A stretch of 64,000 nucleotides of DNA from an uncultured Planctomycetales bacterium (GCA_964354795.1 CAYHBB010000014.1:17249-81248), one strand, 5' to 3'. Positions 1 through 63,763 are shown, counted from the stretch's first letter. Notes: generated by a model from the letters alone, not told the origin. Numbers and translations: made by a program.

Positions 1-850
1 CTGAAGTCATACGCTCAACCACAAAAGCGCGGAAAAAATCTCCAAACAAAGGAAACCCAAAAAGAAAACCCTCAAACTGGCGCTGGCCTTCTTTGGTCGC
101 TATATATTTACGCAATAGCCAAACCGCTACGACCGCTCCGCCGATCATAAACAAAAAGTAGCTTCTCATAAACATACTTACCGTGATAAGCACCTTGGTC
201 AAAGCGGGAAGCTCGACATTAAAACCTTTAAACAGTTCCGCGAAAGTAGGGATAATATTTATGGTCATAAACAATAGCGCTCCAATACAGGCCACAAGCA
301 GAATAACAGGGTATATAAGCGCTGAGATGATCTTGCTTTTGAACGCGGCATCGCGCTCCAGGTACCCGGCTAAGCGGTTTAAGACTACCGCCAGGTTTCC
401 GCTTGCCTCACCGCTCTCCACAAGATTCACCCAAAGCTCAGAAAAGACTTTAGGATGCTTTGACATCGCTTCATGGAAACTTAAGCCCGCCTCCATCTTC
501 TTTTGCAAATCAGCCAGCACCGTATAAAGCTGCTTGCTGGAAACCTGCTGTTTGATAATATCAAGGCTCTTTAAAATGGTTACACCCGCGCCCAGCAATG
601 TCCCCAACTGGCGACAAAAAAGCACCAGGTCATCGCTATTAGCCCTGCCATGTTTAGTTCTTAATTTGGCTTTTACCGCGGTGGCTCCGCTCATTGCCGA
701 AAGGTCTACTTTGGCATCAGTAGTGATACTGATAACCAGGAGATCCTTGGACTGAAGCAAGTTGATCACCTCTTCAGAGGTCGCGCCTTCTTCAAGGCCG
801 CTACGCTTTTCTCCTTTTTTGTCACGGGCAATATAATAGAATTTCGGCAT
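1..850 (-). CDS. pilC: Type IV pilus / T2SS inner-membrane platform protein PilC/GspF. Only the N-terminal part is in the window; the gene starts at 850 and runs off the window start.
   Basis: Manual minus-strand translation from the ATG at 850..848 gives MPKFYYIARDKKGEKRSGLEEGATSEEVINLLQSKDLLVISI...LGAGVTILKSLDIIKQQV, a typical GspF/PilC N-terminus. TAATG overlap with the pilB stop. Not in the ORF track because it exits the window. Confidence 0.8.
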   Translation of the reverse strand, partial: MPKFYYIARDKKGEKRSGLEEGATSEEVINLLQSKDLLVISITTDAKVDLSAMSGATAVKAKLRTKHGRANSDDLVLFCRQLGTLLGAGVTILKSLDIIKQQVSSKQLYTVLADLQKKMEAGLSFHEAMSKHPKVFSELWVNLVESGEASGNLAVVLNRLAGYLERDAAFKSKIISALIYPVILLVACIGALLFMTINIIPTFAELFKGFNVELPALTKVLITVSMFMRSYFLFMIGGAVVAVWLLRKYIATKEGQRQFEGFLFGFPLFGDFFRAFVVERMTS

Positions 851-2568
851 TATTCAGCTCCTATGGTAACAGAAAGCGCTTCTTCTAAAGAGGTAGTGCC
901 CTCTTCCACCTTGCGCAATCCTGATTCATACAATGTCTGCATTCCGGAGGCGCGCGCCACTTCCCTGATCCTCTGGAAAGAAGCCTTCTGGTTGATCAGT
1001 TCCTGTATCTGAGCATTGATCACCATCACCTCGCCTATACAAATCCTCTCCCTGTATCCTAATTGATTACACTTTGGGCAACCTTTGGCCCGATAGATCA
1101 ATTCTGCTTTCAATTTGACATGCTTAAGCTGCTCAGGGGTAGGCTCGTATGCTTCCTTACACTCAGGGCAAAGCTTACGCACCAGACGCTGGGCCACCAC
1201 ACATAATATAGAAGGAGCAAGCATGTAAGACTCGATACCTATATCCATGAGACGGGTGACCGCCGAAGAAGCGTCATTGGTATGCAAAGTACTTAACACC
1301 AAGTGGCCCGTAAGCGCTGAGCGGATACAGATCTGCGCGGTCTCTAAATCGCGCACTTCGCCGACTAGCATGACATCAGGATCCTGGCGCAGGAAGCTGC
1401 GCAAGCACGCTGCAAAAGTAAGGCCTATCTCAGGCTTGATCTGGACCTGGTTTATCCCCTCCAACTTATATTCCACGGGATCCTCGACAGTAATAATATT
1501 TTTCGATGGGCTCTTGATCTCATTAAGCATGGCATAAAGCGTAGTAGTCTTTCCGCTTCCTGTGGGCCCGGTCAAGAACACCAGGCCATAGGGGGCATTG
1601 ATGGATTTACGCATATCCTCTAACTGCTTTGGCTCAAACCCCATCCTGGCTAAATCCAGCACTACCTGGCTGCGGTTCAAAAGGCGCATTACCACTTTCT
1701 CGCCGTAAATTGTCGGAATTGTCGAAACACGGATATCTACGGGAAGGTTTTCCATCTTCACCATAAAAGCGCCGTCCTGAGGAAGGCGCTTTTCCGCTAT
1801 GTCTAATTTGGAAAGGATCTTGATACGCGAGATGATCGCCATATGCATGTGCTTTGCCGGCGGGGGGATCTCATAAAGCTTTCCGTCTATGCGATAGCGT
1901 AAGTTTATCCTGTCCTTAAACGGCTCGATATGAATATCTGACGCGCGTTCGTCAATGGCCTGATGAATAATCAGGTCCACTAATTTTACTACCGGCGCCT
2001 CTTCCGCGCGGGCGATCATTTTATCCAGGCTTAGCTCCTGGCCGGACACCTCCACCTCGGATGAGAACTCAACACCAGTGATATCATAACTGGCATTCAC
2101 CGCATCCTTAAGCATAGCGGACTTACCGTAGAAATCCGTTACCGCCTTTGCAATATCAGACTTGGTGGCCACAACCGCATTTACTTCGCAACCGGTAAGT
2201 TTACGCAGATTATCTATGAGGATCAAATCCAGGGGATCTGCTAATGCAACGGTAAGGGATCTGAGTGTGCGGGACAGCGCAAGGACTGAATTCTTTATGG
2301 CGAATTCCTGAGGGATCAAACGCTCAAGGCCCTGGTCATTGGCGGGCTTAAGCATCCCGGTGCCAAGCGAGAAATATGGAATATTGAGCTGCCGGCCGAG
2401 GACCGCCACCAGCTGGTCTTCTTTTACCAACCCCAACTTCACCACGATTTCACCGAGACGGCCACCCTCCTGCCGCTGCGTGCTTATAGCTTTTTCCAGC
2501 TGGTCCGCGCTGATAAGGCCTTCCTGCACCAGAAGCTCACCCAATCTAAGATACTTCTCTTTGGCCAT
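850..2568 (-). CDS. pilB: Type IV pilus assembly / T2SS ATPase (GspE/PilB family)
   Basis: 572 aa. N-terminal GspE_N-like domain, Walker A LTGPTGSGKTTTLYA, C-terminal CPECK...CPKC zinc motif. Confidence 0.9.
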   Translation of the reverse strand: MAKEKYLRLGELLVQEGLISADQLEKAISTQRQEGGRLGEIVVKLGLVKEDQLVAVLGRQLNIPYFSLGTGMLKPANDQGLERLIPQEFAIKNSVLALSRTLRSLTVALADPLDLILIDNLRKLTGCEVNAVVATKSDIAKAVTDFYGKSAMLKDAVNASYDITGVEFSSEVEVSGQELSLDKMIARAEEAPVVKLVDLIIHQAIDERASDIHIEPFKDRINLRYRIDGKLYEIPPPAKHMHMAIISRIKILSKLDIAEKRLPQDGAFMVKMENLPVDIRVSTIPTIYGEKVVMRLLNRSQVVLDLARMGFEPKQLEDMRKSINAPYGLVFLTGPTGSGKTTTLYAMLNEIKSPSKNIITVEDPVEYKLEGINQVQIKPEIGLTFAACLRSFLRQDPDVMLVGEVRDLETAQICIRSALTGHLVLSTLHTNDASSAVTRLMDIGIESYMLAPSILCVVAQRLVRKLCPECKEAYEPTPEQLKHVKLKAELIYRAKGCPKCNQLGYRERICIGEVMVINAQIQELINQKASFQRIREVARASGMQTLYESGLRKVEEGTTSLEEALSVTIGAE

Positions 2569-5183: not shown

Positions 5184-5196
5184 AGTATTTATCCCT

Positions 5197-7792: not shown

Positions 7793-8014
7793 TTATTTTT
7801 TGTTATAACTTCCGCAGCGCGGGCAAACCGAGATCTTGTCTTCCTTAGTATTTACATAATTATAAGTGCAGACAGAGCAAAACCATATATACTTAGGGTC
7901 CAGTGTAAGGCCCTTGCTTTTTTCTTTTCTACGCATGACAGAAACGCACATTAAGGTAAATACTATAAATACTATATATATAGCTATTGAGCTAGAGAAA
8001 TCTAAGGTGATCAC
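7793..8014 (-). CDS. Small membrane protein with a C-terminal CxxC...CxxC zinc-ribbon
   Basis: 73 aa. TM helix IAIYIVFIVFTLMCVSV, then CSVCTYNYVNTKEDKISVCPRCGS. 4-nt overlap with the upstream TonB-like gene. Confidence 0.4.
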   Translation of the reverse strand: MITLDFSSSIAIYIVFIVFTLMCVSVMRRKEKSKGLTLDPKYIWFCSVCTYNYVNTKEDKISVCPRCGSYNKK

Positions 8015-8652: not shown

Positions 8653-8653
8653 C

Positions 8654-9055: not shown

Positions 9056-9062
9056 CCCGCGG

Positions 9063-9701
9063 TTACTCCGTTAAAAAATTAACCAGCTCTGTCGATGCGC
9101 GCTCCATCTCCAGAATATAGCGATTTATACGGCTCACCAGATAATTGTAGGCTATGTACACAGGTATGGCTACCAAAAGCCCGGCAATAGTCACCAGCAA
9201 CGCTTCCCAGATCCCTCCTGCCATATCAGCGCAAAGCACCGGGTATAAGCCTTGAGCCTTTGCCTGAATAGCCTGAAAACACCTGGCCAGGCCTATGACT
9301 GTCCCAAGCAAACCTAAGAGCGGAGAAATATGCGCTATGGTCATAAGTACAGGAAGACTTTTTTCTATACGCGGTATCTCATACAAAGAAGCGTCTTCTA
9401 TGGCTTCGATTATCTGGGCCCGCGGCCGGTCGTATTTCAATATCCCGGCTTTGAGAATATTGGCGATAGGGCTATTGGTATTGTCGCATATCTCTAGCGC
9501 CTCTTTTGTCTCGTGGCGTTTCATCTTCTCCATCAAACTGCTTAGAAACTCCTCGGTATTGATCTTTGCCTTATTGAGGTACAGAAATTTCTCGATCACC
9601 ACCGCCAGAGCCAGTACAGAGCACAGCAGGATCGGCCACATCACCGGACCGCCGGATAAAAACAACTTGACCAAAGATATCTTATCTAAACCCATATTCA
9701 T
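9063..9701 (-). CDS. exbB: MotA/TolQ/ExbB proton channel protein
   Basis: 212 aa, three TM segments, conserved C-terminal TM pair (AGGIWEALLVTIAGLLVAIPVYIAYNYL). Confidence 0.85.
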   Translation of the reverse strand: MNMGLDKISLVKLFLSGGPVMWPILLCSVLALAVVIEKFLYLNKAKINTEEFLSSLMEKMKRHETKEALEICDNTNSPIANILKAGILKYDRPRAQIIEAIEDASLYEIPRIEKSLPVLMTIAHISPLLGLLGTVIGLARCFQAIQAKAQGLYPVLCADMAGGIWEALLVTIAGLLVAIPVYIAYNYLVSRINRYILEMERASTELVNFLTE

Positions 9702-15015: not shown

Positions 15016-16632
15016 TTACTTTCTCTTTAAGACTAAGGTTTTACCAAAAGCAGCGGCTTGAGAGAAATTCCCGCTAAAATAATCATAGACTAAAGGAATG
15101 CGCTCTTCATTAGGTATCTGGCGGTTGCCCATTACACAATAGCTATCTTGGACCATTATAGCATATCTTAATCCACTTTTGGTAAGGCGCGCTACTGTCT
15201 CTTTCTGCAATTTATCTGAGATCCCGGAATCAATAGCGTTGGTGAAAATATCAGCACAGCGCCTCTTAGCCAGAAAATAATACTGCGGCTCATGGGGAAA
15301 AACGTAAATCGGCTCATCCTTGCCGGTATTAGCCTGTATCCACTGAGTAGCTTTAGAAATGATCTCAGCCTGTTCCTGCGGCAACCTGGCATCCCCCAGC
15401 CGCTCAAGCCCCGGGCCCAATACTGCAGGAAATCCGATATCTTTGTATCTTTCACTCATATAAAACATGTAATCCGGCGTGAGCTTTGAGAAAATAAGCC
15501 CGAGAAAAAGCAGTAATAGGCAGAATGACTTTAAGGCTAAGGCACGCGCCCCTTCCCCCTTCTTCTTGACGGGAAAGATCAATTTCTGGACAAAATAAAA
15601 TCCTGTCAACCCGGTACCAAGCAATGCCCAGCGAAACTGCGGCCCGGAAACTACCGGCCCGGTAAAGCCGCGCATCCCGATCATAAACATGGCTATCCCG
15701 AAAACCATCATCAAAAGGAATCCGGCCTCCTGCTTTTTTCTATTTATAAAAAGATATACCACGCTCACAGCATATAGTAGAGCCGAGAAAACGAAATCAA
15801 AGCTTGCCGATTGCAGACAGGCAAGCCAGGCGTCTACTGACACATGAAACGGCCGCAAAAAAGGCAGCAAAGCTATCCTAGAAGGATTATTGTAATAGCT
15901 AAAGAAAGCAAGCGGGCTCTTTAGCGTATTCAGCAATACCATCTCCATGGAGGCACCGCGCAAAATAAGATACAAATAAAAAGCTCCTACTATTGATAAA
16001 AACGGCAGAAAAAATGCCGCTATATCACTAGGCCTCTTTCCTTGAGCTTGCCATATATACGCCATAAACATGACTATGGCGATTACACCGGCCTCCTGAG
16101 TGATAAGAAAACATATACCTGAGGACACGCCGAACCAGATAAACGCTGGAATCCCCCCAGATTTAAGCGCGCGAAACAGAAATAAAGCCGGGGCGACCAT
16201 CGCCAAACAACGCACGCCTCCCCACTTGCTCATCCAAAAAGGTATCACGCAGGCAGAAGCGATAAACCAGCAAAAGAACGCCAGCAGTATCCTGCTTTTA
16301 ATCAGCTGGCGACCAAGAAAATATGCCGCGACCAGACTGGCTAAAGAACCAAAGAACATGAAACTGCGCAGTCCCGCCACCGTATTGCCGAATATCTTTA
16401 AGGCAAGCGCCGTTATGTAGGGGAATGCCGGCCCGAAAGTGACAAAAAAATCCTTAAGCGGCACCTGATGAAACTGGATAGCATTTACCCAGGCAAGCGG
16501 ACTCCCCTCGTCCCAACTCAAGAAAAGACCATGCTTGTAATAAGGATGATACGCTAAAAGGATTATAAATAATGGAAAGAGGATATAATCCAAGGACCAA
16601 TAAATAAACTTCTTTGTGTTCGGATTAGACAT
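15016..16632 (-). CDS. GT-C-fold polytopic membrane protein (glycosyltransferase family 39/83-like). The ORF extends to 16665, but the likely start is at 16632 (TGATG coupling).
   Basis: About 12 TM helices plus a C-terminal soluble domain. Adjacent to an ArnT/PMT-like gene and a GT2 gene. Confidence 0.45.
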   Translation of the reverse strand: MSNPNTKKFIYWSLDYILFPLFIILLAYHPYYKHGLFLSWDEGSPLAWVNAIQFHQVPLKDFFVTFGPAFPYITALALKIFGNTVAGLRSFMFFGSLASLVAAYFLGRQLIKSRILLAFFCWFIASACVIPFWMSKWGGVRCLAMVAPALFLFRALKSGGIPAFIWFGVSSGICFLITQEAGVIAIVMFMAYIWQAQGKRPSDIAAFFLPFLSIVGAFYLYLILRGASMEMVLLNTLKSPLAFFSYYNNPSRIALLPFLRPFHVSVDAWLACLQSASFDFVFSALLYAVSVVYLFINRKKQEAGFLLMMVFGIAMFMIGMRGFTGPVVSGPQFRWALLGTGLTGFYFVQKLIFPVKKKGEGARALALKSFCLLLLFLGLIFSKLTPDYMFYMSERYKDIGFPAVLGPGLERLGDARLPQEQAEIISKATQWIQANTGKDEPIYVFPHEPQYYFLAKRRCADIFTNAIDSGISDKLQKETVARLTKSGLRYAIMVQDSYCVMGNRQIPNEERIPLVYDYFSGNFSQAAAFGKTLVLKRK

Positions 16633-17852
16633 CAGGGGATGAGTTGTTGCGCTTTTAGCAGCCAAAAACTTACCGGGTCATAGATACCCTCTTTTACAAA
16701 AAGGGCGTAAAAATTCAAACAATCAAAAACCGCAAAAACTAACACCAGGGATATCAGAAAGACCGCGTTTTTGGCCGAAGAATATCTTTGAGTTATTTTA
16801 ATAAGCATAAATAAAGCGAATAACCTCAGCGGATAATCCAAAATCATCACATAGCGGACATTTTTAGTAAAGAACTCAAAAAGAAATAACAGCGATACAA
16901 AAACAAGGAGGAAATAGGCCACTGCTTCGCTTTTTTCCCGCTCCCGGCTCACCAAATAATAAAAAATAAAACCTAAGGCCAGTATCAATACAAAAGGCGA
17001 TATTAAGAGATAATCGATGATATAACGAAACCATGGGCCTGATCCGTAAAGAATAGCGTAAGGGTTTGTCGGGGGAGAACTGATGATGATCTGGATCAAA
17101 CGCGGCAGATACGGCAATATTCCAAGGACTGCATAGACAATACCTACCGCGCAAAAAGGAATGACCGACGCCCAGAGAAAATCCATGACCCGCACTTCTT
17201 TCTTATAGATAAACCTTGCGCACAAAAGCCAAGAGATAAAAATGAAGGATAGAAGCACGCTAGTCTCTTTGATCAGTATTGCGCAGGCAAAAGCTGAGGC
17301 AAAAAGCAGCAGCTTGGGATTAGTCCGTTTACTTATATAATCAAAGAAAAGCCACAGCGACAAGAGAGAAAATAAATTAGCGGTGGAGTCCATCAACGCG
17401 CGTCGGGACACTGCCATCATAAGCGGCGAGGACGCCAGGAGTATGGATAATAATAACGCGAAAATATTGCCAAAATATTTCCTGCAGAAATAAAAAGAAA
17501 CTATCAGGAAAAGACAGTAAGAGAAAAGGGACAAATTGGCCAGCCCGGCAAAACCGCACCCAAAGGCCTTAAGCCATAGGCCGGATAAAATAATAAAGCC
17601 CGCGCGCAGCGGATTAGGAAAAACCCAGTTGTGAGGTGCGGTGAGATATTCCCGGCATAGCTCTGGAAATCCCGATATCCCTTTTTCCCCTATCGCGTCG
17701 GCATACTTCAGGTAATAGCCCTCATCTGCGCCTGAGGCAAATTCAATTCGCGACAGACTCATGGAGATAACGCTTACTGCCGCGGAAATGATCAATAACA
17801 GCAGCAACACGCTTATTCTTAATGATCTGTCAACAAATAAGCTTTTTGCCAT
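16632..17852 (-). CDS. ArnT/PMT-like (GT39 family) membrane glycosyltransferase
   Basis: 406 aa, polytopic. N-terminal loop with DEGYY, typical of undecaprenyl/dolichyl-phosphate sugar-utilising GT-C enzymes. Confidence 0.55.
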   Translation of the reverse strand: MAKSLFVDRSLRISVLLLLLIISAAVSVISMSLSRIEFASGADEGYYLKYADAIGEKGISGFPELCREYLTAPHNWVFPNPLRAGFIILSGLWLKAFGCGFAGLANLSLFSYCLFLIVSFYFCRKYFGNIFALLLSILLASSPLMMAVSRRALMDSTANLFSLLSLWLFFDYISKRTNPKLLLFASAFACAILIKETSVLLSFIFISWLLCARFIYKKEVRVMDFLWASVIPFCAVGIVYAVLGILPYLPRLIQIIISSPPTNPYAILYGSGPWFRYIIDYLLISPFVLILALGFIFYYLVSREREKSEAVAYFLLVFVSLLFLFEFFTKNVRYVMILDYPLRLFALFMLIKITQRYSSAKNAVFLISLVLVFAVFDCLNFYALFVKEGIYDPVSFWLLKAQQLIP

Positions 17853-36421: not shown

Positions 36422-38341
36422 TTAACTTTTCCTTAGGTTCGCCAACACGATAATAGTGATATCGTCATGCTGCGGCGCGCCGGCTGCAAAACGGCCGAGC
36501 TCTTCCTTTGTCATTCCCAATATTCTATCAGAAGTAGCGTTTCCGTGCTCGAAAATTATTCTTTTTACGTTCTCAGATCCAAACTCCTGGGCCTGACGGT
36601 TGCGCGCCTCGGAAAGGCCATCTGTATAAACCATTACCTTGTCGTTGGGACTTAAATCAAATGAAGCGTCAACATATTCCGTTTCATCCATTACCCCCAA
36701 AGGCATCCCGGCACCCAGCTCAATCTCCAAAACTGCGTTGCCGCCCTTACGGTAAACCAGAACCGGAGAATGTCCGGCCGAGGAGACCTGCACCTTACCT
36801 GCCTGCGGGTCGATGATCATATAAAGACAGGTGACGAACCTTCCCTCGAACTTCCCGCATAATTCTTTATTCAGACGCTCCAGCACTTCATGCGCGAAAT
36901 CATACTGAATGGCGAATACTCGAAATAGCGAAATGCTCTGGGCCATGATCAATGACGCCGGCACACCTTTGCCCGAAACGTCTCCGATAAGCACCCCCAA
37001 CTTGTTATCTTTAAGCGACAGGATATCGTACAGGTCTCCGGCAACGAATTTCGCCGGCTGCATAAAACTGGACACGGATATTCCGGAAACCTCTTTTACA
37101 TCCTTAGGAAGGAAGCTCTTCTGAATAGCCCGCGCGATATCCAGCTCTTTCTCCAAAAGCTGGCGCTTCTTGGTTTCGTTAAAAAAGCGGTAAAAAGTCG
37201 AACCGATGTAGGTAAGCGCGGTGATAAAAAGTGGCAAGAACAGGTCTACCCAGAAGCCGAAAAACACAAAAACAGCGACTGCAAAAATAAAATAGGCGCT
37301 GCCTAAGATAATGCTTGAGCCAAAAGCTCTTAAGGGCGTGAAACGCAGGCAAATAAAGAGGCTTAATGCAAAAATCAACAGATTGATAAGCGTATTCAGC
37401 AATAATCCCGCAGGCGTGATAAACCTTCCGGTCAAAAAGCTGTTTAAAACGCTTGCCTGCAGCCCAATCATGGGATAGAGATTCTCCAGCGGGGTGGGCC
37501 GGATATCGAAAGTGCCTGTAGCGGTAAGGCCGATAAAACAAACTTTATCTTTAAGGATAGATAAATCAAGCTGCGGCTTGATACCCTGCTTCTCGTCAGT
37601 ATAAGCCTTAAGAATCCCAATATACGAAAGATGCTTAAAAGATTCTCTCCATGTGCCGGGATAATTGACCATAAAGGAGCCATCCGGCAACGCCGGAAGG
37701 GAATAATTTCCGCCGATAATGATCCTGCCTCTTTTATAGACCGCGCTATTCAAGTCAAGGCCCAGCCGATCCCCGGCCACCTTAAGCGCAAGCTGCGGAT
37801 AAAGCCTGTCTTCGCATTTTATGAAAAGCGGTATCTTGCGAGCCTTGCCGTCGGGATCGACATCCGCGTTAATATAACCCACTCCCGCGCAGGATCCCTT
37901 AAAGATATCGCGCAAGTCCGCGATGACCGCGCTACTCTTTAAAGGAAAACTTCTGCCTTGCGGATTTTCAAGCGCCACCGCCATGTACACATTCCCGGCA
38001 TCTTTAATGGATTTTACAAGAGCATCGTCATAAACGGCAGGCTCGCTGAAAAGCAGGTCAAGAACAATCATTTTCACGCCTTTTTCTTTTAAAACGTCAA
38101 TAAGGCTGGCGTGAAAATCGCGCGATATCGGCCACTCCCCTAAGCTCTTAAGAGTATCGTCAGAGATCTCGACAATTACGATATCGGGGCTGGCCTTAAA
38201 AGCCGGCCTAAGCTTTAGGCGCAGGTCATAAGATATGGACTCGTAATTGTCAAAGACCCTGACCCATGAAAAAAAGAAAATCATCAGCACTGAAGCGCTG
38301 ATGACCCAGATCTTTAAAGGAATGTTTTCTAGGAATTTCAT
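36422..38341 (-). CDS. CHASE2-domain membrane sensor fused to a PP2C-type (SpoIIE/RsbU-like) serine phosphatase
   Basis: 639 aa. N-terminal TM plus periplasmic CHASE2-like domain (DIVIVEISDDTLKSLGEWPISRDFHASLIDVLKEKGVKMIVLDLLFSEP), a 4-TM region, and a C-terminal PP2C domain (GDVSGKGVPASLIMAQ...VYTDGLSEARN...). Confidence 0.8.
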   Translation of the reverse strand: MKFLENIPLKIWVISASVLMIFFFSWVRVFDNYESISYDLRLKLRPAFKASPDIVIVEISDDTLKSLGEWPISRDFHASLIDVLKEKGVKMIVLDLLFSEPAVYDDALVKSIKDAGNVYMAVALENPQGRSFPLKSSAVIADLRDIFKGSCAGVGYINADVDPDGKARKIPLFIKCEDRLYPQLALKVAGDRLGLDLNSAVYKRGRIIIGGNYSLPALPDGSFMVNYPGTWRESFKHLSYIGILKAYTDEKQGIKPQLDLSILKDKVCFIGLTATGTFDIRPTPLENLYPMIGLQASVLNSFLTGRFITPAGLLLNTLINLLIFALSLFICLRFTPLRAFGSSIILGSAYFIFAVAVFVFFGFWVDLFLPLFITALTYIGSTFYRFFNETKKRQLLEKELDIARAIQKSFLPKDVKEVSGISVSSFMQPAKFVAGDLYDILSLKDNKLGVLIGDVSGKGVPASLIMAQSISLFRVFAIQYDFAHEVLERLNKELCGKFEGRFVTCLYMIIDPQAGKVQVSSAGHSPVLVYRKGGNAVLEIELGAGMPLGVMDETEYVDASFDLSPNDKVMVYTDGLSEARNRQAQEFGSENVKRIIFEHGNATSDRILGMTKEELGRFAAGAPQHDDITIIVLANLRKS

Positions 38342-50488: not shown

Positions 50489-50983
50489 CTAGCGGTAATT
50501 GCAGAAACTAAGCGGTATAGGAAACTCCAGGGTCCTTAGATGCGCAATCACTGCCTGCAGATCATCCTTTTTCGCGGAGGAGACCTTGATCTTTTCTCCC
50601 TCGATCTGAGCCTGCGCTTTCAGGCCCAGCTCCTTTATAATACCAGTGAGCTTTTTAGCGTTTTCCTTGTCAATACCCATGCAAATCTCGACTTTCTGAC
50701 GCAGATACCCTTCAAAGGCCTTTTCCGGATCATTGAATTTAAGGGACTTAACGGATATACCGCGCTTAGCCATGCGGCCGACCAACATATCGGTAAGGGC
50801 GCGCAGTTTAAAATCGTCATCGGCGATCAGGGTGACCAGCTTTTCCGTACGGTCATAGGCGATCGAGGATTTACTGTTCTTGAAATCATATCTCTGGGCC
50901 AGCTCCTTATTCGCCTGGTTCACCGCGTTATCCATCTCCTGCAGGTCAACCTCGGAAACTACATCAAACGAAAAGTTAGGCAT
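50489..50983 (-). CDS. yajQ: YajQ family (UPF0234) nucleotide/c-di-GMP-binding protein
   Basis: 164 aa. MPNFSFDVVSEVDLQEMDNAVNQANKELAQRYDFKNS... Confidence 0.85.
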   Translation of the reverse strand: MPNFSFDVVSEVDLQEMDNAVNQANKELAQRYDFKNSKSSIAYDRTEKLVTLIADDDFKLRALTDMLVGRMAKRGISVKSLKFNDPEKAFEGYLRQKVEICMGIDKENAKKLTGIIKELGLKAQAQIEGEKIKVSSAKKDDLQAVIAHLRTLEFPIPLSFCNYR

Positions 50984-56165: not shown

Positions 56166-56636
56166 TTACCTTACTTCCCAATGTGCGGGGACCCATTTTC
56201 CGGAGGCATTACGATGCCCGGAAATCCAGACTCGCGACTTGCTTTCTTTGATTTCTCCACCTTTCCAATGGCTGGGAATCCACTTACCATTTCTCCAATG
56301 TCCAGAGACCCAGGTCTTTCCCTCCACTACCCTTACATTCTTCCAGTATCCGTGAACCCATTTCTCATTCGCGCCCCAGTGAGCAGGTACCCACTCCACT
56401 GCCTCAACAGAAGAGCACTCCACCTGCTTCCAGTGGCCGGATATCCATTTACTATTATTGCTCCAGTGTCCAGGAACCCACTCCCATGGAGAATTGCTGT
56501 CCGGAAGCTCTACCTTTACCCATACTCCATTGACATAGTTCCCTGGCCCATCAGGGACAGAATCAGCGAAAACAGGCACATACAACAGAAACGAAAATAC
56601 AACCAGCAATAGCACCATCTTCACAACTTTTTTCAT
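56166..56636 (-). CDS. Secreted WxxGxW-repeat protein
   Basis: 156 aa. Signal peptide. At least 8 tandem copies of W(V/I)xGHW about every 12 aa. Confidence 0.6.
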   Translation of the reverse strand: MKKVVKMVLLLVVFSFLLYVPVFADSVPDGPGNYVNGVWVKVELPDSNSPWEWVPGHWSNNSKWISGHWKQVECSSVEAVEWVPAHWGANEKWVHGYWKNVRVVEGKTWVSGHWRNGKWIPSHWKGGEIKESKSRVWISGHRNASGKWVPAHWEVR

Positions 56637-56661
56637 CTTACCCTCCTTCTAGAGTTGATCC

Positions 56662-57105
56662 CTAAAACCAAATCCGCCTTTTTAAAATAAGGACAAGGCA
56701 ACCAATCACGATCTGAATCACGGCAAAGATCTTCAGGTGTTTTATAGGCACCTTGGCGAACCACTCAACAAACTTATTATACAGCTTTTTCTTAAATACT
56801 AAGTAAGCCTTGATAGAACCAAAAATAATCACTAACATCAAAACAATAGCCAAAATACCGCTCAATTTCCCAGCCAAGCCAGTCAGGATCCCGACAATGT
56901 AGATCACCGCCAGAAGCAGCATAAACTTAGCAGGCCCAAAACCCATGCCAGTAAGTTTCCTACGCGCCCGCTCCGGCTTCCACAGAAAAAACGCTCCGGT
57001 AATGATCAAAAACCAGGCCAGGATAGTGATAAAAAACACCGTCTTGCCCAGCAAAAAATTGAGTAGCTTTAAAAACAGGCTTTTAACGTACAAAATCACG
57101 GTCAT
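56662..57105 (-). CDS. Integral membrane protein, four TM segments
   Basis: 147 aa, hydrophobic helices; no recognisable family. Confidence 0.35.
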   Translation of the reverse strand: MTVILYVKSLFLKLLNFLLGKTVFFITILAWFLIITGAFFLWKPERARRKLTGMGFGPAKFMLLLAVIYIVGILTGLAGKLSGILAIVLMLVIIFGSIKAYLVFKKKLYNKFVEWFAKVPIKHLKIFAVIQIVIGCLVLILKRRIWF

Positions 57106-57734
57106 GGATATCCCACTGTCTGCGTAAGTATGATTTTCTGCGTAGGCTTAAGGTTCATCTCTGCACCAAGTACCTTCTCATCAAACCACCCCCGCACTAC
57201 TGTGGCCAAGCCAGCAGAAGCGCAGTATAAATACACATTTTCACTGATATATCCTGTGTCTGCTGCCGAATAAAACTCGAACTGATCGCCAGAATCTTTC
57301 GCGCGAAGGGAATCTGCCACGTATATGAGGTTTACCGGAGCCTTCGCCACAAAATCCTGTTTACCTGTTACAGCACGGATATCTTTGGCAATGACCGGCT
57401 CAAGAATGTTTTTAAACGCGTCATACAAATACAACCCTGACTCCATAGCCACATAGATATCTATCTCCTGGCAGTTATGCGCAGTAGGGGAAGTCCTTTG
57501 TTTTGATTCCGGCCTGTTCACTCCCGCTGCTGCCCACAGTAGATCCGAAAGCACCTGTATAGGCAAAGGCTTACCGCTAAATTCCCGGGAAGATTTTCTA
57601 TCCTTCAATGCCTGCATCAAAGGCTTCCCCCCGCTCATATCCGGCTTGGGTAGCTGGATAGTCTTTGCTTCTTGCGCAAATGCCGTTACTGTCAACAGTA
57701 CCGCCGCAATAATAATAGGAATCGTTTTTTTCAT
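57102..57734 (-). CDS. Secreted nitroreductase-fold (SagB-type dehydrogenase-like) protein. The ORF extends to 57791, but the likely start is MKKTIPIII at 57734.
   Basis: Signal peptide. LSDLLWAAAGVNR...nitroreductase-fold motifs. Confidence 0.55.
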   Translation of the reverse strand: MKKTIPIIIAAVLLTVTAFAQEAKTIQLPKPDMSGGKPLMQALKDRKSSREFSGKPLPIQVLSDLLWAAAGVNRPESKQRTSPTAHNCQEIDIYVAMESGLYLYDAFKNILEPVIAKDIRAVTGKQDFVAKAPVNLIYVADSLRAKDSGDQFEFYSAADTGYISENVYLYCASAGLATVVRGWFDEKVLGAEMNLKPTQKIILTQTVGYP

Positions 57735-57750
57735 CACTTTATCTCTCCTC

Positions 57751-60700
57751 CTACTTCCCTTTATGCGATAGGCAAGTATTGATTTTCTCAATGTAGAGAA
57801 GTATTTCTTTTCGGGCTAGCCCATAAATTTTCTGGTCAAGCAGGCTTGTCAAAAACTCACTCATCTCTTTTCTATTCCCATACACCCCCATATCTATGAC
57901 AATATCCCGCTGTGTCTCGGGATCCTGTCCGGGAAACAATCTTTTTAGCATTGAAAAAGCGCTTTCTGTATTCATCTGGATAAGCGATTGAAAATAACTT
58001 CTTTTGATCTCCCGGTCATTGTTTTGAATAGCTTTTTCATAAAGAGGAAGCTGCTGTTCATCTTTTATCCTTTTCATTATATCCAAGGCAAGCAATACCC
58101 TCTTCTGTGCCCCTGAATCAATAAGCATTTCTATGAAAGGCGCGGTTTCGGTTTTAAATTCCTTAAGTATATCCAGCAATTCCAGGTTCTGCAGGTACCA
58201 TTCGAAAAGCAGCGAGCTCGATTGCCTTGTTTCCAATGTCTCAATAAAATAAAGGATCCCTTCCGGCATCATCTTTTTAAAGAGGGAGATGACTAAAGCA
58301 TTCTTGCTGGCATCAAAGGCGACTTCATCAAGAATACTTGCTAGTTGAGCGCATAGAGAAAATATGTCTATGCCTTTCAGGGCTTCTTTAGCCGGTTGCC
58401 TCCTCCAGATAAACCCTCCCGAAGCGTTAAGGTCTTCTTTTAGCGTAGAGATGACCCTATAGATATCCCAATAATTGCTGAGTTCCTGTAAGCGAGAAAT
58501 AATTGCCCCCGCATCCATTGCAAGCGATTCATAAGCTTGCTGATCATTTTCAACATGGAGCGCCTGAAGAAAAAGAGCAGTGATTCTTTTCATGTAAAAA
58601 TCCGCAAGGTGCGCGGGAATGATCTTTATGATCTCCGACAAGGTAACGGCCGTATATATCTTTGCTTCCAGCTCGCTGCTTTGTAAATTCAAAAGATATT
58701 TATCCAAAATCTGCTCTGCAAGAGCGCTTTCATTTATTACAAAAAGTTCATTAAGGGTGGGTTTAAGATTTTCTATGACCCCCATAGCCAGAATGGTCCG
58801 GGGATCAGCGTTCAGGTATGTGTTGGCTCTCTTGATCACAGGATAGCGCAGAAAATCATGGGAATCGATAAGCCACGTAAAGCAGACATCCGACATCCCC
58901 AAATTTATCAGGGCATCTTTCAATTTTACGGCGATTGTTTCTTTTTGTTGGGAATCTTTCAGGCATACCTTGACCATTTCCCTAATATCCAAGATCGCTG
59001 TTATATGGCGGCGGTATTCATCAGTAATTACCTCCACCAGCACGTCCGGCGAGAAATGGGAGATCGATTTGGCAAAAAGATCTGTTTCCGCTTCATCGAA
59101 AACCTTTAATTTTTTGATGACCTTGGTCTCTTCTTTCTCGTCACCAACCTTAGCGCCACCTTCCTTCGGCAGGGGAATAGCCTCTCCGATAGCTCTTTTT
59201 ATCATGAATTCCTTGATGAATTCCTTATGCAGCTGCCTCTTTTCTTCTTCGGAATAGACTTTTTTGTAGAGCACCTCATCGATATTTATGGCGTTGATCT
59301 TATGATCAAGGAGGATCTTTTTCCATTGTTCCTTTTTTTCCATCGATAGTTTGGGATTAGAAAGAAGGCCGATAAATGCCTTGATCTCATCAGCCAAGAC
59401 AGTACGATGAAAAGTAATGCTTCCGATATTAGCCATGCTCATAATGGCAAGGATAGTCTTTGTAAGTATATCTTCCGACTGGAATGACCGATGGAGTTCC
59501 TGCCCGTTTATCAAAAGCTTGATATCTCCGGATGGACAGCTAAAGGTAAGTATATGGTGGGCCGTAAAAAATTCTTTAAAGCATCTGGCCAAACTATAGA
59601 CCATCTTAGTGGTGATCTCATTAGGCATCTGGTACATCTGCATACTTTTTATCGCTGAATTAAAAGAGCTGATGATCTCCATTATCAGCGGCCAGGTCTC
59701 TTTTTTTATCGGCTCATGGCGCTCCTTCTCTTCCCGGTCGTTAATGGCATTTTCGATGACCTTTTCCGCCTCCACGCTTGAAAAAAGGTTTTCGATATAG
59801 ACGACCGCCTGATGGGCATAGTTTTTTGTCTTAGCTTCAAGATTTGCCTTGTTGAAATGGAAGGCTAGCTCCGAGCTTATCTCTTCGGTATTATTCTTGA
59901 ATTCATGCTCAAGGGTGGTAGCGATATCAAGGTGGATCTTTTTTTTCTGCTCGGTATCGATGCTCTCATAAAGAACCGAACGCAGGGAATCGTTATTGAA
60001 GAAAACCTCGTCTTCGGCCTGATTTTCTCCGAGCTTTAGGATATTTTTTTCTGAGACGCGGGAAAGGATATCCTGCAGGTGCCCGTGGTTTATTTTTTTA
60101 AGCTTAGAAAGAAAATCAAACTTAAGGTTACTCCCTATGCCGGAAACAGCCAAAAGCAATTCTTTTTCTTCGGCCCCTAGGTTTTGCAACTTGCTGATAA
60201 GCAGCTCCCTTAAGTCTCTTGGAAGCCGGCCTGTGTCAATTTGGAATACCCAATGAGGATATTGTAGATAAATGTTTTTCCTGTCCCAAAGGTATTGTAT
60301 TAACTCGACAATGAAAAGGGGGCTGCCTTCGGTAGCGCCGAAGAGTTCGCTGGTGAATCTTTCAGGGATATCATGGCCGCTAAAAATTCCCTTTATGACT
60401 TCTCTGGTCTCTGCCTGGTCAAAAAACGGCAGGGTTATGTGGGGCACGATCTCAAACTCCGAGATCTCCGACAGCAGCGAATCAAGAGCTGAATCGCTAT
60501 CGTGCGTTTTTGAAGACGGGTGGCTGGTGCTTCCTAATAGGACAAAAGGAGTCTGTTTTTTAGACAGGATTATGAAACTAAATATTTCTGAGCTTGCGGT
60601 ATCGATCCAATCAAGATTGTCCACGATAATAAGCGGATTTATCTGGGTGAATATGCTTTCGCAAAGGTCCGCAAGCCCGTGGAATAGATTGAGCCTCACC

Positions 60701-61638
60701 TCGGCATCCCAATGGTTCACGTGAAGATGAGGCACAAATAATCTTTTTAATTTCGGCAACGCGGAGAGCGCGGTTTTTAATTTCGGCGAAAGTTCCGATA
60801 CCGCCTTTTGGCATATTTCGACATGCTCGTATGCAAGGCTGCATATGATATCTTCCAACAGGCTGTAAGGTTTTTCTTTCTGCTGTTCGCCGCAGACAAG
60901 AAGGAATGTTTTTAAGTCCTTCACCTTTGCCCGGATGGATATCTCCTGGAGCATGCGGCTTTTGCCGCAGCCCACCACTCCATTTATGATAATAAGCTTA
61001 TAGCTTTTCCCTCCAAAAAGAAACTTCTGGATCTGTGCTAATTCGTTTGCTCGGTCGACAAATGGCGCCTCAGCAATATTCTTTTGGATCCTTTTTTCTT
61101 CCCTGGTCTGGGCAAGGATCTCGTTGGCAAAGGTGAGCTTGTTTTTACCGAGCCTCTTTGATGAATACAGGGCTTCATCGGCTTTTCCTAACAGTTCTTC
61201 CTGGGTTAACCCGTCATGAGGGAATTCCACGATCCCTATACTCATGGTCAGGCTTAGGCTCTGCCTGGAACCAGGGAGGATGAATTCATAATTAGCGACA
61301 TCCTGTCGTATCTTGTCCCATATGACGCCCACATTTTGCCTGTCGCAGTTTTTTAGGATCACCACAAATTCATCGCCGCCGTAGCGGGCAATTACCGCTT
61401 CGGTATTCTGCAATCCGCGCTCCAAAATCACCGCGAATTCCTTAAGCACGAAGTCTCCGCTTAAATGGCCGTAGGTGTCATTAATATCTTTAAAATGGTC
61501 TAAATCGGTAAGGATAAGATAAAAAGGGCTGGCGGCGCTATGGGAAAGCGAGAGTATCTGTCCGATACTCTCGCGAAAACCCCTGCGGTTATAATGCCCG
61601 GTTAATTCGTCAACTAAAATCAAATCTTTGATAATCAT
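57751..61638 (-). CDS. Giant multidomain signalling protein: N-terminal GGDEF diguanylate cyclase, STAND/AAA_16-type P-loop NTPase, and about 900 aa of helical (HEAT/TPR-like) repeats
   Basis: 1295 aa. GGDEF domain with an intact RYGGDEFVVIL and DLDHFKDINDTYGH. Walker A IINGVVGCGKSRMLQEI at about aa 215. The remainder is alpha-helical repeats. Confidence 0.8.
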   Translation of the reverse strand: MIIKDLILVDELTGHYNRRGFRESIGQILSLSHSAASPFYLILTDLDHFKDINDTYGHLSGDFVLKEFAVILERGLQNTEAVIARYGGDEFVVILKNCDRQNVGVIWDKIRQDVANYEFILPGSRQSLSLTMSIGIVEFPHDGLTQEELLGKADEALYSSKRLGKNKLTFANEILAQTREEKRIQKNIAEAPFVDRANELAQIQKFLFGGKSYKLIIINGVVGCGKSRMLQEISIRAKVKDLKTFLLVCGEQQKEKPYSLLEDIICSLAYEHVEICQKAVSELSPKLKTALSALPKLKRLFVPHLHVNHWDAEVRLNLFHGLADLCESIFTQINPLIIVDNLDWIDTASSEIFSFIILSKKQTPFVLLGSTSHPSSKTHDSDSALDSLLSEISEFEIVPHITLPFFDQAETREVIKGIFSGHDIPERFTSELFGATEGSPLFIVELIQYLWDRKNIYLQYPHWVFQIDTGRLPRDLRELLISKLQNLGAEEKELLLAVSGIGSNLKFDFLSKLKKINHGHLQDILSRVSEKNILKLGENQAEDEVFFNNDSLRSVLYESIDTEQKKKIHLDIATTLEHEFKNNTEEISSELAFHFNKANLEAKTKNYAHQAVVYIENLFSSVEAEKVIENAINDREEKERHEPIKKETWPLIMEIISSFNSAIKSMQMYQMPNEITTKMVYSLARCFKEFFTAHHILTFSCPSGDIKLLINGQELHRSFQSEDILTKTILAIMSMANIGSITFHRTVLADEIKAFIGLLSNPKLSMEKKEQWKKILLDHKINAINIDEVLYKKVYSEEEKRQLHKEFIKEFMIKRAIGEAIPLPKEGGAKVGDEKEETKVIKKLKVFDEAETDLFAKSISHFSPDVLVEVITDEYRRHITAILDIREMVKVCLKDSQQKETIAVKLKDALINLGMSDVCFTWLIDSHDFLRYPVIKRANTYLNADPRTILAMGVIENLKPTLNELFVINESALAEQILDKYLLNLQSSELEAKIYTAVTLSEIIKIIPAHLADFYMKRITALFLQALHVENDQQAYESLAMDAGAIISRLQELSNYWDIYRVISTLKEDLNASGGFIWRRQPAKEALKGIDIFSLCAQLASILDEVAFDASKNALVISLFKKMMPEGILYFIETLETRQSSSLLFEWYLQNLELLDILKEFKTETAPFIEMLIDSGAQKRVLLALDIMKRIKDEQQLPLYEKAIQNNDREIKRSYFQSLIQMNTESAFSMLKRLFPGQDPETQRDIVIDMGVYGNRKEMSEFLTSLLDQKIYGLARKEILLYIEKINTCLSHKGK

Positions 61639-61692: not shown

Positions 61693-62496
61693 TTAATCAA
61701 CAATTTTAGCGGTCAGAAACATCTCCACTTTCTTATTCTCCCCGCTGGATTTTCCTGACAAAAGCCCCTTCTTGGAGCGCCCCTTCTGGACCTGGGCTCC
61801 CCCTATAGCGACAGTATCTCCGTCATTAAGCATTACCTGAGTTATTATCGACCTCTCAGAAGGAGTGCCGGGTTTTTCCATACTGCTAACCGTTGGCCTT
61901 AAGACCACATTGATCGAGCCGTCATTATTTACGGTGGGCAAAACTTCTAACATACTGCCTATCGGCTCTCTTACGGGTGTTATGATCTCCGTGCCATTGC
62001 TGAATATTACGAATTCGGTACCGATCACCTCGTCAGTAGTGACCTGCAACGCTGCCGGACGATTGCTCAAAGTCCGCACCATCATGCTGGTGCGGGTGCT
62101 GGCCTCTTTGCTTTCCTTGATCAGCTCCACTATCGCCATAAACTTTCCCTGAGGGATGATGACCTGGTTGTAACTGACGCCGATATCCCGCAAGAATTTT
62201 TCGCTAGCCTCTATGACCAGAACTTTGATCTCTACCTGTTTCTCCCGGATATCTATGCCCTTGATCACCTGGGCAATGCGCTCGATATTCTCCGGACAAT
62301 CAAACACGATCAGGCTGTTAGAGTTCTGATCAAAACTTACCTTGCCTTGCTCGCTTTTTAAGCTGTCCGCCACCTCAAACAGGGATTGCGCGCTTCCGTG
62401 CTCGATCTTGAGCACCTTGAGCTCAGGCTCGCAGGCATGACAAAGAATTACCGTAAAAGAAATTACCAATACGATAAAGCTAATTATTCTTCGCAC
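61693..62496 (-). CDS. Minimal secretin-family protein (secretin N-domain plus compact secretin domain)
   Basis: 267 aa. Signal/TM. N-domain (...NSNSLIVFDCPENIERIAQVIKGID). Secretin domain start QVEIKVLVIEASEKFLRDIGVSY; LEVLPTVNNDGSINVVLRPTVSS; ITQVMLNDGDTVAIGG; terminal VEMFLTAKIV. The VPxLGDIPxLG motif is degenerate. Confidence 0.5.
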   Translation of the reverse strand: MRRIISFIVLVISFTVILCHACEPELKVLKIEHGSAQSLFEVADSLKSEQGKVSFDQNSNSLIVFDCPENIERIAQVIKGIDIREKQVEIKVLVIEASEKFLRDIGVSYNQVIIPQGKFMAIVELIKESKEASTRTSMMVRTLSNRPAALQVTTDEVIGTEFVIFSNGTEIITPVREPIGSMLEVLPTVNNDGSINVVLRPTVSSMEKPGTPSERSIITQVMLNDGDTVAIGGAQVQKGRSKKGLLSGKSSGENKKVEMFLTAKIVD

Positions 62497-62505: not shown

Positions 62506-63261
62506 TCATTCCCCCTTATGGATCTCCACACGATCCCTACCAGCTGCTTTGGCCCGATAAAGCGCGGCGTCTGAAATCCTGATCAGATCTTCTTTAACAA
62601 AATCTTTGCTGTTGCCGTCAAAACACCCAATGCCGATACTTATGGTGACCACGCCCTTACTGGGATTGACCTTCTTTGCGTGACTGAGCAATTTCTCAGC
62701 CAGAACTTTTGCGTTTTCTTTACGCGTATCCGGAAGCAGAATAACAAACTCTTCTCCTCCATAGCGAGCAGCCAGATCGACTTCTCTAGGAACACGCTTG
62801 AATACATCCGCAAGCCCCGTCAAAATCATATCGCCCTCGAGGTGACCAAAAGTATCGTTAAATTTCTTAAAATAATCGATATCTATCATCAAAAGCGAAA
62901 GCGGACTTAAATTCTTTTTAGAACGTTCTATCTCTTCTTCGAGCTTTTGCATAAAATATTTATGGCCAAACAAACCGGTCAGGCCATCGCGGATCGCCTC
63001 ATCCAATAGCGTTTTATAATGCCGCTTATCTTTAAAATAGACAAAATTAACGATTTGACGCTCCAGCGGTTTGCTGAACTTTATGGCGGCATAGAAGAAA
63101 ACAAGGATAGTGATACCGGATACGCAGGAAGCATTATAATAGTCAAGGCGCATTAGGCCTTGATACATCCTAACCAAAAAAATATGTAATGCCAGGATCA
63201 GTCCTACAAATACAAGTGCTATAAGTATAATTTTATCTGTTGCCTTATTCTCTTTTTCCAT
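62506..63261 (-). CDS. Membrane-anchored GGDEF diguanylate cyclase
   Basis: 251 aa. Two N-terminal TM helices. GGDEF domain with RYGGEEFVILL. Confidence 0.85.
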   Translation of the reverse strand: MEKENKATDKIILIALVFVGLILALHIFLVRMYQGLMRLDYYNASCVSGITILVFFYAAIKFSKPLERQIVNFVYFKDKRHYKTLLDEAIRDGLTGLFGHKYFMQKLEEEIERSKKNLSPLSLLMIDIDYFKKFNDTFGHLEGDMILTGLADVFKRVPREVDLAARYGGEEFVILLPDTRKENAKVLAEKLLSHAKKVNPSKGVVTISIGIGCFDGNSKDFVKEDLIRISDAALYRAKAAGRDRVEIHKGE

Positions 63262-63763
63262 TTTTCAATTTCTCCCAATGGATCACTTCTTTCAAGCCTC
63301 TCTTCTGCGCGACATGGAAACTTTCTTTGGACTTAGGGTAGCCTAAAGCAACCAGGCTCACTAATCTATATGCGGCAGGTACATTTAATAATTCAGCTAC
63401 TTCAGCGCAGTATGGTTTCTTGTCTCCGGCAACCCAGCAGGAACCGATGCCTAAGGAAGTCGCGGCAAGCAAGATGTTGCAGGTAGCGGCGCATCCGTCT
63501 TCCAGATAATATTTTGTATCGGCGCAGAATACCGCGATACAGGCTTTTGCCTGGGCCAGGAACCTTGCGTTCTCCGCTAAATCACCTAGTTCTTTTAAGG
63601 TAAGCGCCTGGGTAATTACAATAAACTCCCACGGCTGGACATTCCTAGCGGTGGGGGAAAACCTGGCCGCATCAACAATCTTTTCCAAAACATCTTTTGA
63701 TATCTGCTCGTCTAAATATTGCCTGACACTTCTTCTTGTTTTAAGGATTTCTAAAGGATCCAT
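63245..63763 (-). CDS. Nitroreductase family protein
   Basis: 172 aa. LEILKTRRSVRQY...PTARNVQPWEFIVI nitroreductase signature. Confidence 0.85.
   Translation of the reverse strand: MDPLEILKTRRSVRQYLDEQISKDVLEKIVDAARFSPTARNVQPWEFIVITQALTLKELGDLAENARFLAQAKACIAVFCADTKYYLEDGCAATCNILLAATSLGIGSCWVAGDKKPYCAEVAELLNVPAAYRLVSLVALGYPKSKESFHVAQKRGLKEVIHWEKLKNGKRE

Follow-up and report, generated by a model that had tools for sequence, protein, structure and literature searches.

The gene at positions 57751..61638 on the minus strand of a 64,000-nucleotide stretch of DNA from an uncultured Planctomycetales bacterium (GCA_964354795.1 CAYHBB010000014.1:17249-81248; hereafter the window, with coordinates counted from its first letter) encodes a protein of 1295 amino acids (aa) that is probably, though far from certainly, a diguanylate cyclase gated by a STAND-type ATPase switch, as judged from its sequence motifs, structural models, and analogy with known switches. 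We refer to the protein by its domain order, GGDEF-STAND-DX-HEAT, where DX is our label for a domain described below. The open reading frame (ORF), taken from the ORF list of the window, starts with ATG and translates without interruption. The closest database match, P0001, has 93% identity and carries the annotation of a diguanylate cyclase from Candidatus Omnitrophica, and 11 further full-length orthologs (1177 to 1296 residues; 35 to 82% identity) align end to end and keep the motifs. Across this set (35 to 93% identity), the orthologs that carry a phylum name are assigned to Candidatus Omnitrophota. These matches place the source of the window in an uncultured bacterium of Omnitrophota. 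Because full-length orthologs down to 35% identity keep both the length and the motifs, this is not a chance ORF; the gene is real, intact, and conserved. All statements below on residues that do not vary rest on the alignment of the 12 ortholog sequences.

The N terminus is formed by a GGDEF diguanylate cyclase domain (residues 9 to 167; 61138..61614, minus strand), which matched Pfam GGDEF (PF00990) with an E value of 1.7e-40 (138.9 bits; threshold, 23.8) and TIGR00254 with an E value of 1.6e-41 (141.8 bits; threshold, 37.4). The alignment of the PleD-type model NF007135 to the 1295-aa protein was likewise confined to this domain. The domain contains the motifs DELTG (residues 10 to 14), DHFKDIND (47 to 54), and RYGGDEF (85 to 91), and the GG[DE]EF loop (G87 to F91), the metal-binding Asp, and the substrate-binding Asn and Asp (D45, N53, and D62) are all present. 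The DxLT turn, D45, D47, F49, K50, N53, D54, G61, D62, the whole of R85-Y-G-G-D-E-F91, and the phosphate-binding stretch SSK..G.N do not vary among the orthologs. We take D62 to be the guanine-specifying position, which is occupied by Ser in the Hypr enzymes that make cyclic GMP-AMP (cGAMP). By these residues, the domain is predicted to be catalytically competent and of the cyclic di-GMP (c-di-GMP) type. An earlier interpretation made from the DNA alone, the sequence-only reading, had described an intact GGDEF cyclase domain, and this description holds: the catalytic residues are unvarying, and the domain is not degenerate in any ortholog. The RxxD inhibitory site (I-site) is common in GGDEF cyclases and is not obligatory; at its position here, which starts 9 residues before the first Gly of GGDEF, residues 78 to 81 read NTEA, and the ortholog consensus is KxxD. 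The GGDEF domain begins at residue 5, without an N-terminal sensor or stalk helix. With nothing upstream of the domain, regulation must come from the C-terminal side.

Residues ~190 to 615 (59794..61071, minus strand) make up a predicted STAND module for nucleotide binding and oligomerization, of the AAA_16 type, in which sequence signatures mark a P-loop NTPase, a helical GxP domain, a winged helix, and a first helical arm. Pfam AAA_16 matched residues 193 to 363 (E = 5e-7), and AAA_22, NACHT, NB-ARC, and nSTAND gave still weaker matches over the same stretch. TIGR03903, a model for kinase/cyclase-AAA_16-TPR fusions, aligned over residues 189 to 613 (E = 2e-22); the whole-protein score (78.8) lies far below the membership cutoff of that family (705.75), to which the protein therefore does not belong. 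The Walker A motif, GVVGCGKS (residues 220 to 227; 60958..60981, minus strand), has G223, G225, and K226 unvarying in the orthologs. In our motif table, which covers 91 relatives, every protein aligned across Walker A has GxGK[ST] except P0193, where a lineage-specific substitution gives GKER. The Walker B region, LIIVDNLDWID (residues 336 to 346; 60601..60633, minus strand), has an unvarying D340 and conserved D343 and D346. Further downstream lies the GxP signature, TEGSPLFIVEL (residues 436 to 446; 60301..60333, minus strand), in which T436, G438, F442, E445, and L446 do not vary; GNP[LF]F..E is kept in most of the relatives compared. The succession of GxP helical domain and winged helix, read from the sequence only, is given by this signature and by EEKELLLAVSGIGSNLKFDFLSKL, with a winged-helix-like segment of the form EEKELLLAxxGxGxxFxFDFLSKL and an arm that begins with LHxxIA...ELAFHF helices.

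We built a profile of the STAND module from 13 diverse relatives, and this profile retrieved Ser/Thr-kinase-AAA_16, class III cyclase-AAA_16, SARP-AAA_16, and AAA_16-TPR proteins. The kinase-, class III cyclase-, and SARP-AAA_16 proteins are STAND proteins with an N-terminal effector. The central module thus has most of the hallmarks of an AAA_16-clade STAND NTPase, with an atypical Walker B and an atypical sensor-1. The proposal of a STAND/AAA_16-type P-loop NTPase made from the DNA alone is borne out in that the Walker B Asp, the GxP signature, and the winged-helix signature were all found.

The C-terminal 675 residues were modeled with AlphaFold2 (AF2) from a 10-sequence alignment (predicted local distance difference test [pLDDT], 81; predicted template modeling score [pTM], 0.67). 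Residues 640 to 802 (59233..59721, minus strand) form a compact alpha/beta domain in this model, DX, with two long helices, packing helices, and the short strands LTFS, LLINGQEL, IGSITF, and INID. Modeled alone from 34 diverse sequences, DX reached a pLDDT of 92.4 and a pTM of 0.87. No Pfam family was found consistently in any of the 34 members, a sequence search of the PDB with DX gave no meaningful match, and the best Foldseek E value for DX was 0.2. DX, with ~160 aa and the consensus AIxNxxLYPxxS...LTxSExEGxLLINGxxL...IxSITFxxG....EL..F...LS...W..L....I..I.IDE..Y, is a previously undescribed domain. It is followed by a charged, variable linker (residues ~809 to 847; 59098..59214, minus strand), which has a pLDDT of <50 and is gapped and unconserved in the alignment, and by a HEAT/ARM-like alpha-solenoid of ~26 helices (residues ~849 to 1295; 57754..59094, minus strand; pLDDT mostly 85 to 95). 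We assign the solenoid to the HEAT/ARM fold because it matched PP2A-A, beta-catenin, and importin-alpha in Foldseek, with a probability of 1.00 for most top matches and TM-scores of 0.2 to 0.3; such low TM-scores are usual for flexible solenoids. The HEAT_2 family matched the 1295-aa protein weakly and its relatives strongly. Many relatives of ~1400 aa (P0014 to P0017, P0155, and similar proteins) carry two tandem DX domains between STAND and HEAT, and some stand-alone proteins have the order DX-DX-HEAT. Given these tandem copies, DX duplicates as a unit. The sequence-only reading had placed about 900 aa of HEAT/TPR-like helices after the P-loop. That is correct only for residues ~849 to 1295 and not for the region as a whole, since what follows the GGDEF domain is the STAND module (~190 to 615), an alpha/beta domain (~640 to 802), a disordered stretch (~809 to 847), and then the solenoid; DX, which separates the NTPase from the HEAT arm, had been missed.

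A working model for such a protein can be drawn from what is established for its parts. GGDEF domains act only as dimers, and STAND proteins such as MalT and APAF-1 change from closed monomers into ATP-bound oligomers once the sensor arm is engaged. At rest, the protein would exist as a closed monomer with nucleotide bound and the GGDEF domain idle, since two GTP-loaded GGDEF domains must face each other for c-di-GMP to be made. Binding of a ligand or partner protein at the DX-HEAT arm would open the STAND module, ATP binding would then drive oligomerization, and the oligomer would pair the N-terminal GGDEF domains by induced proximity and start c-di-GMP synthesis, which would continue until the nucleotide is hydrolyzed or exchanged. 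Relatives in which a class III cyclase or a kinase is joined to AAA_16 must obey the same induced-proximity logic. The missing I-site together with a "DN" Walker B suggests weak negative feedback and slow reset, and the ON state may be long-lived, considering the Asn at the second Walker B acid and the lack of an I-site. The output is likely to be control of envelope or pilus functions, with a machine resembling a type II secretion system (T2SS) or type IV pilus (T4P), and possibly YajQ, as candidate targets. DX-HEAT is a mobile module that is also found on kinases or alone, and we infer that this mobility is what would be expected of a sensor or adaptor.

A more specific version, in our view possible but improbable, is that the family embodies a new mode of controlling c-di-GMP synthesis, a "c-di-GMP signalosome," in which a partner or ligand at the DX-HEAT sensor would cause ATP-dependent STAND oligomerization and thereby active GGDEF dimers beside a T4P/T2SS-like machine. 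In Omnitrophota, many of which are thought to be host-attached, ultra-small cells, pilus or secretion activity would thereby be tied to contact or to the state of the machine.

To place the architecture among known sequences, the DX-HEAT profile was searched against 1.84 billion representatives at 50% identity and matched 2088 proteins at an E value of ≤1e-3 and 351 at ≤1e-10. Of the best 150 matches, the 146 that were newly fetched were sorted into architecture classes with local hidden Markov models. GGDEF-STAND-DX(-DX)-HEAT accounted for 42 of the 146, DX-HEAT without the N-terminal parts for ~52, and STAND-DX... without GGDEF for ~12; some of the GGDEF-less proteins may be fragments. The DX-HEAT group includes stand-alone proteins of ~720 to 750 aa, annotated as "HEAT repeat domain-containing protein," and Ser/Thr-kinase fusions. 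Named examples among the profile matches came from Omnitrophota, Planctomycetota, Elusimicrobiota, and Deltaproteobacteria, and the full GGDEF-STAND-DX-HEAT architecture is represented by no fewer than 40 clusters at 50% identity, with named examples from Omnitrophota and Planctomycetota. A sister group, GGDEF-AAA_16-TPR, is without DX and occurs in candidate division WOR-3 and elsewhere. A word-index search with the DX alignment returned two short fragments only.

Within the wider DX-HEAT group, P0146 (1145 aa, Candidatus Omnitrophota) and P0125 are fusions of a Ser/Thr protein kinase with DX-HEAT. P0146 adds a C-terminal Pfam "MshEN" domain (the N-terminal domain of T2SSE) without the c-di-GMP-binding motif, and this fusion points to docking of DX-HEAT modules onto machinery of the T2SSE type. 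P0160, a stand-alone DX-HEAT protein, has a purely housekeeping gene context.

Full-text literature searches (GGDEF with STAND or AAA_16; Omnitrophota with c-di-GMP; MshEN with Omnitrophota) found no description of the architecture, of its GGDEF-AAA_16-TPR cousins, or of the DX-HEAT proteins, and the sole paper in them that names both GGDEF and STAND treats GGDEF in vWA-MoxR systems. The sequence-only reading had allowed for an already characterized family under another name, and TIGRFAM and literature searches turned up none. It had also called the architecture unusual, which overstates the case in view of the number of clusters given above. The GGDEF-STAND-DX-HEAT architecture is unstudied but not rare.

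We examined the genes around the target in the window and in the contigs of its relatives. Between 63763 and 50489, every gene is on the minus strand, and the gaps are short. In minus-strand order, these genes encode a nitroreductase, a two-transmembrane GGDEF protein, a 267-aa secretin-like protein, the target, a second nitroreductase, two small membrane or secreted ORFs, an RF-1-domain (ArfB-like) protein, CarB, a protein with a pyruvate kinase barrel domain, and YajQ, which is preceded by a gap of ~300 nucleotides (nt) without a listed ORF of at least 80 aa. The secretin-like gene (61693..62496, minus strand; Pfam Secretin_N and a truncated Secretin) lies 54 nt upstream of the target and is probably cotranscribed with it; its product is half-size, with a hydrophobic N-terminal signal that ends in a Cys-containing stretch. 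At a distance of 9 nt from this gene is the gene for the membrane-anchored GGDEF protein (62506..63261, minus strand; 251 aa; Pfam GGDEF, E = 3.8e-41), which has a GGEEF motif and a REVD I-site. The YajQ/DUF520 nucleotide-binding protein (50489..50983, minus strand; Pfam DUF520, E = 4e-59), 6.8 kb from the target, is a possible c-di-GMP effector; members of the YajQ family reportedly serve as such effectors in Xanthomonas. A promoter and terminator scan around the operon gave counts equal to the shuffled expectation.

The contig of P0001 (L007) has the same gene order minus the two small ORFs, and the short secretin next to P0001 is 92% identical. The contig of a 91.5% identical relative (L096) is rearranged, with YajQ (10221-10715; 86% identical) 48 nt downstream of the ortholog and the short secretin (72 to 75% identical in two tblastn runs) 4 kb further, at 4 kb from the ortholog. 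Other orthologs have other neighbors: a response regulator and an unknown gene at P0002, a nitroreductase and smpB at P0003, dnaG-rpoD at P0009 (with a secretin homolog 5.7 kb upstream), and unrelated genes at P0013, P0014, and P0136. We looked for a conserved upstream partner and rejected the candidates, as the upstream genes of P0002 (373 aa) and P0013 (366 aa) are homologous neither to each other nor to the short secretin.

Genes for T2SS or T4P components recur in these neighborhoods. At P0010/P0011 (39% identity), the target is followed by genes for T2SSE, T2SSF, pseudopilins, and PilM/N. At P0126, a distant member, the order is HAMP-GAF-GGDEF, a PilT-like ATPase, the target, a 161-aa MshEN-family protein, two T2SSE, T2SSF, and a pilin. 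A T2SS/T4P component was found by tblastn in the fetched flanks of 4 of 12 independent contexts and at 1 of 80 control loci (Fisher P = 8e-4), and such genes are directly adjacent in three contexts (the window with L007; L002 to L006; and L094). The controls were 80 generic GGDEF loci, from a scan of genome contigs with the full-length alignment that picked up GGDEF motifs. This recurrent association had been missed in the sequence-only reading, which had pointed to a neighborhood rich in c-di-GMP genes. A second GGDEF gene and YajQ are indeed present in the window, but as a conserved feature the claim did not stand: a second GGDEF gene, tried as a conserved neighbor, occurred in 2 of 12 contexts and 8 of 80 controls and is not enriched, and YajQ is nearby only in the closest relatives.

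Several further observations were made on the same DNA. The two small ORFs at 56166-57105 (minus strand) encode a 147-aa multipass membrane protein and a 156-aa secreted protein with Trp-rich repeats (..GHW.. and ..W[VI]..HW..). Both are absent at that position in L007, the stretch has a marked excursion in GC skew and AT skew, and it may be a small insertion. Nitroreductase-family paralogs at 63245-63763 and 57102-57791 (both minus strand) bracket the GGDEF/secretin/GGDEF-STAND block, and a nitroreductase with 31% identity lies at 7062-7562 of L001, just upstream of P0003 (a 46% identical ortholog); this could be a recurring neighbor or a coincidence. Elsewhere in the window are a CHASE2-SpoIIE (PP2C phosphatase) sensor protein (36422-38341, minus strand), an 826-aa TPR protein (9708-12188), UvrA (12211-15012), and a 549-aa ORF without a Pfam match (15016-16665).

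A T4P/T2SS-like cluster also lies in the window itself, ~50 kb from the target (850-9700, minus strand). It contains a T2SSE/PilB-type ATPase (850..2568, minus strand; Pfam T2SSE and MshEN), a full-length secretin (2590-4224, minus strand), a PilM-PilN fusion (5197-6747, minus strand), and small ORFs. We compared the ATPase with the 24-residue c-di-GMP-binding motif of MshEN domains as defined in PMC5013675. It contains both 24-residue motifs, at residues 8 to 31 and 37 to 60, with the canonical 5-residue spacer; the first fits the relaxed motif (strict but for one I in place of L) and the second fits the strict motif. The ATPase is therefore a credible candidate c-di-GMP receptor in this genome, as far as its motifs indicate. 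The Pfam "MshEN" region of P0146 fails even the relaxed motif, and a Pfam PF05157 "MshEN" match as read from sequence does not imply c-di-GMP binding.

Several results weigh against an ATP-switched cyclase. The AAA_16 match of this protein (30.7 bits) falls just under the Pfam gathering score of 32.6, although relatives of the same architecture score 47 to 63 bits, above it. The second acidic position of Walker B is Asn (N341); this "DN" form is shared by this clade and most of the GGDEF-AAA_16-TPR clade, whereas most other relatives have "DD" or "DE." At the presumed sensor-1 Arg, where the alignment is uncertain, the protein has STSHP (His) and most orthologs have SDSRP. With Asn at Walker B and His at sensor-1, the module could bind nucleotide without cycling. 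A PDB sequence search with the STAND module as a single sequence gave no match, and one with the STAND-module profile gave only generic P-loop matches, ClpC, ClpB, and Avs4 among them. Moreover, the gene neighborhood is not conserved across orthologs, and because the neighborhood control was not phylum matched, and Omnitrophota may be rich in pilus genes, the T2SS/T4P association is suggestive only. The T2SSE ATPases encoded next to the relatives' genes were considered as c-di-GMP receptors and rejected, since they fail even the relaxed MshEN motif: in those of L002, L004, and L094, the motif Arg is replaced by H, Q, or L, and the second motif is without RLG. What the neighborhood connects to the family is therefore the machinery; it does not single out those ATPases as c-di-GMP sensors.

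The main rival explanation, which we consider possible but improbable, is a localized and essentially constitutive cyclase in which the NTPase-like module is a static nucleotide-binding scaffold and DX-HEAT a tether to, e.g., the secretion or pilus machine, with no ATP switch. The "DN" in place of "DD," the His at sensor-1, and the subthreshold AAA_16 score would all fit, as would the facts that HEAT solenoids are typical protein-protein scaffolds, that DX-HEAT is found alone without any NTPase, and that the gene adjoins secretin or T2SSE genes in several lineages. However, the Walker A Lys, the Walker B Asp, GxP, and the winged helix are strongly conserved in orthologs at 35 to 93% identity and in distant relatives, which would be unexpected in a decayed module, and a lone GGDEF domain without a dimerizing element would be poorly active unless two copies were brought together. 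We give far less credence to an anti-phage defense STAND protein of the Avs-like kind, whose C-terminal arm would recognize a phage protein and whose GGDEF domain would produce, as an alarm signal, c-di-GMP or a nucleotide related to it. Its layout of effector, NTPase, and repeat sensor does resemble Avs and other defense STANDs, the STAND-module profile weakly matches Avs4 (E = 6e-5, in the P-loop region only), and ORF6N and SprT-like genes lie 4 to 9 kb from P0001 on L007. Yet PADLOC gave no significant match (the sole one being PDC-M16A; E = 0.016, 11 bits), and the neighbors are mostly housekeeping genes (nitroreductases, arfB-like, carB, pyruvate kinase, dnaG-rpoD, and smpB) and pilus genes, with no defense or mobile island; the defense connection drawn in the sequence-only reading is thus not supported. 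Further, ortholog length and motifs are kept over 35 to 93% identity, which fits a stable gene and not a fast-turnover defense gene, no associated c-di-GMP-activated killing effector was found, and the module groups with signaling AAA_16 proteins.

The remaining rival concerns the output domain: the GGDEF domain would be a nucleotide receptor, or would make another dinucleotide as a Hypr-type cGAMP synthase, and not c-di-GMP. Receptor roles are known for some GGDEF domains, and promiscuity for some, but here the full catalytic set is unvarying (GGDEF, D45, N53, and the K/R of SSKRLG), Asp (D62) stands at the specificity position, as it does in enzymes specific for c-di-GMP, and not the Ser of Hypr enzymes, and the I-site used by receptor-type GGDEF domains is absent, and we hold this explanation to be very improbable. 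A c-di-GMP-producing cyclase gated by the STAND module is the reading we retain.

To our knowledge, in almost every diguanylate cyclase studied so far, the switch is an N-terminal sensor that acts through a helical stalk. If the reading is right, a STAND-gated cyclase would add to c-di-GMP signaling an ATP-dependent control by induced proximity, which is the mechanism of apoptosomes, plant NLRs, and Avs proteins, and would give it a threshold-like and possibly long-lived ON state. The dozens of 50%-identity clusters with GGDEF-STAND-DX-HEAT make the family experimentally tractable, and once the binding partner of DX is found, hundreds of hypothetical proteins labeled "HEAT repeat" would gain an annotation. 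The pilus and secretion genes linked to the family offer a lead on how attachment to surfaces or hosts might be placed under c-di-GMP control in Omnitrophota.

Compared with known systems, the protein has the STAND signal-integrator architecture that had been recognized from the DNA alone, with an intact N-terminal GGDEF output, an AAA_16 STAND NTPase, and a C-terminal repeat arm. The class III cyclase-AAA_16-TPR/LuxR proteins (the Mycobacterium tuberculosis Rv0386 type and the TOMM kinase/cyclase fusions of TIGR03903), an analogue known for twenty years, likewise join an N-terminal dimerizing cyclase to an AAA_16 STAND module and C-terminal helical repeats, and GGDEF and class III cyclase domains reportedly share a fold (Pei and Grishin, 2001, as cited in PMC7159879). 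Their output is cyclic AMP or cyclic GMP and their arm a TPR or a LuxR helix-turn-helix, whereas here the output is GGDEF/c-di-GMP and the arm DX plus HEAT. MalT, AfsR (a large SARP), and PknK have the same order of effector, NTPase, and repeat sensor and the same Walker A, hhhhD, GxP, and winged-helix signatures, and SARP- and Pkinase-AAA_16 proteins are among the best matches of the STAND-module profile; activation of MalT by ligand-dependent, ATP-dependent oligomerization is established. In contrast to the DNA-binding or kinase effectors and TPR/SUPR arms of these proteins, the present one has a second-messenger enzyme, DX-HEAT, and Asn at the second Walker B acid, and the solved members have no sequence-detectable match to its STAND module. 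The GGDEF-AAA_16-TPR proteins (P0018 to P0037; ~1070 aa; annotated as "tetratricopeptide repeat protein"; from WOR-3 and other uncultured bacteria) share the N-terminal GGDEF, mostly the "DN" Walker B, and 25 to 29% identity over the first ~600 residues, but have a canonical TPR arm without DX or the HEAT solenoid; they, too, are uncharacterized.

Avs1 to Avs4 and their relatives follow a similar tripartite logic of effector, STAND, and repeat sensor, with a weak match to Avs4 at the level of the P-loop; their effectors are nuclease- or protease-like, whereas here there is a signaling enzyme, with no matching PADLOC model and no defense island. PleD, WspR, and DgcZ have the same catalytic domain and residues as the GGDEF domain here, but cyclases of that type are controlled by an N-terminal sensor via a helical stalk and mostly have an RxxD I-site, whereas here GGDEF is at the extreme N terminus, the candidate regulatory parts are C-terminal, and there is no I-site. 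The type of switch and the output domain are thus each known, while their combination is uncharacterized and DX is new.

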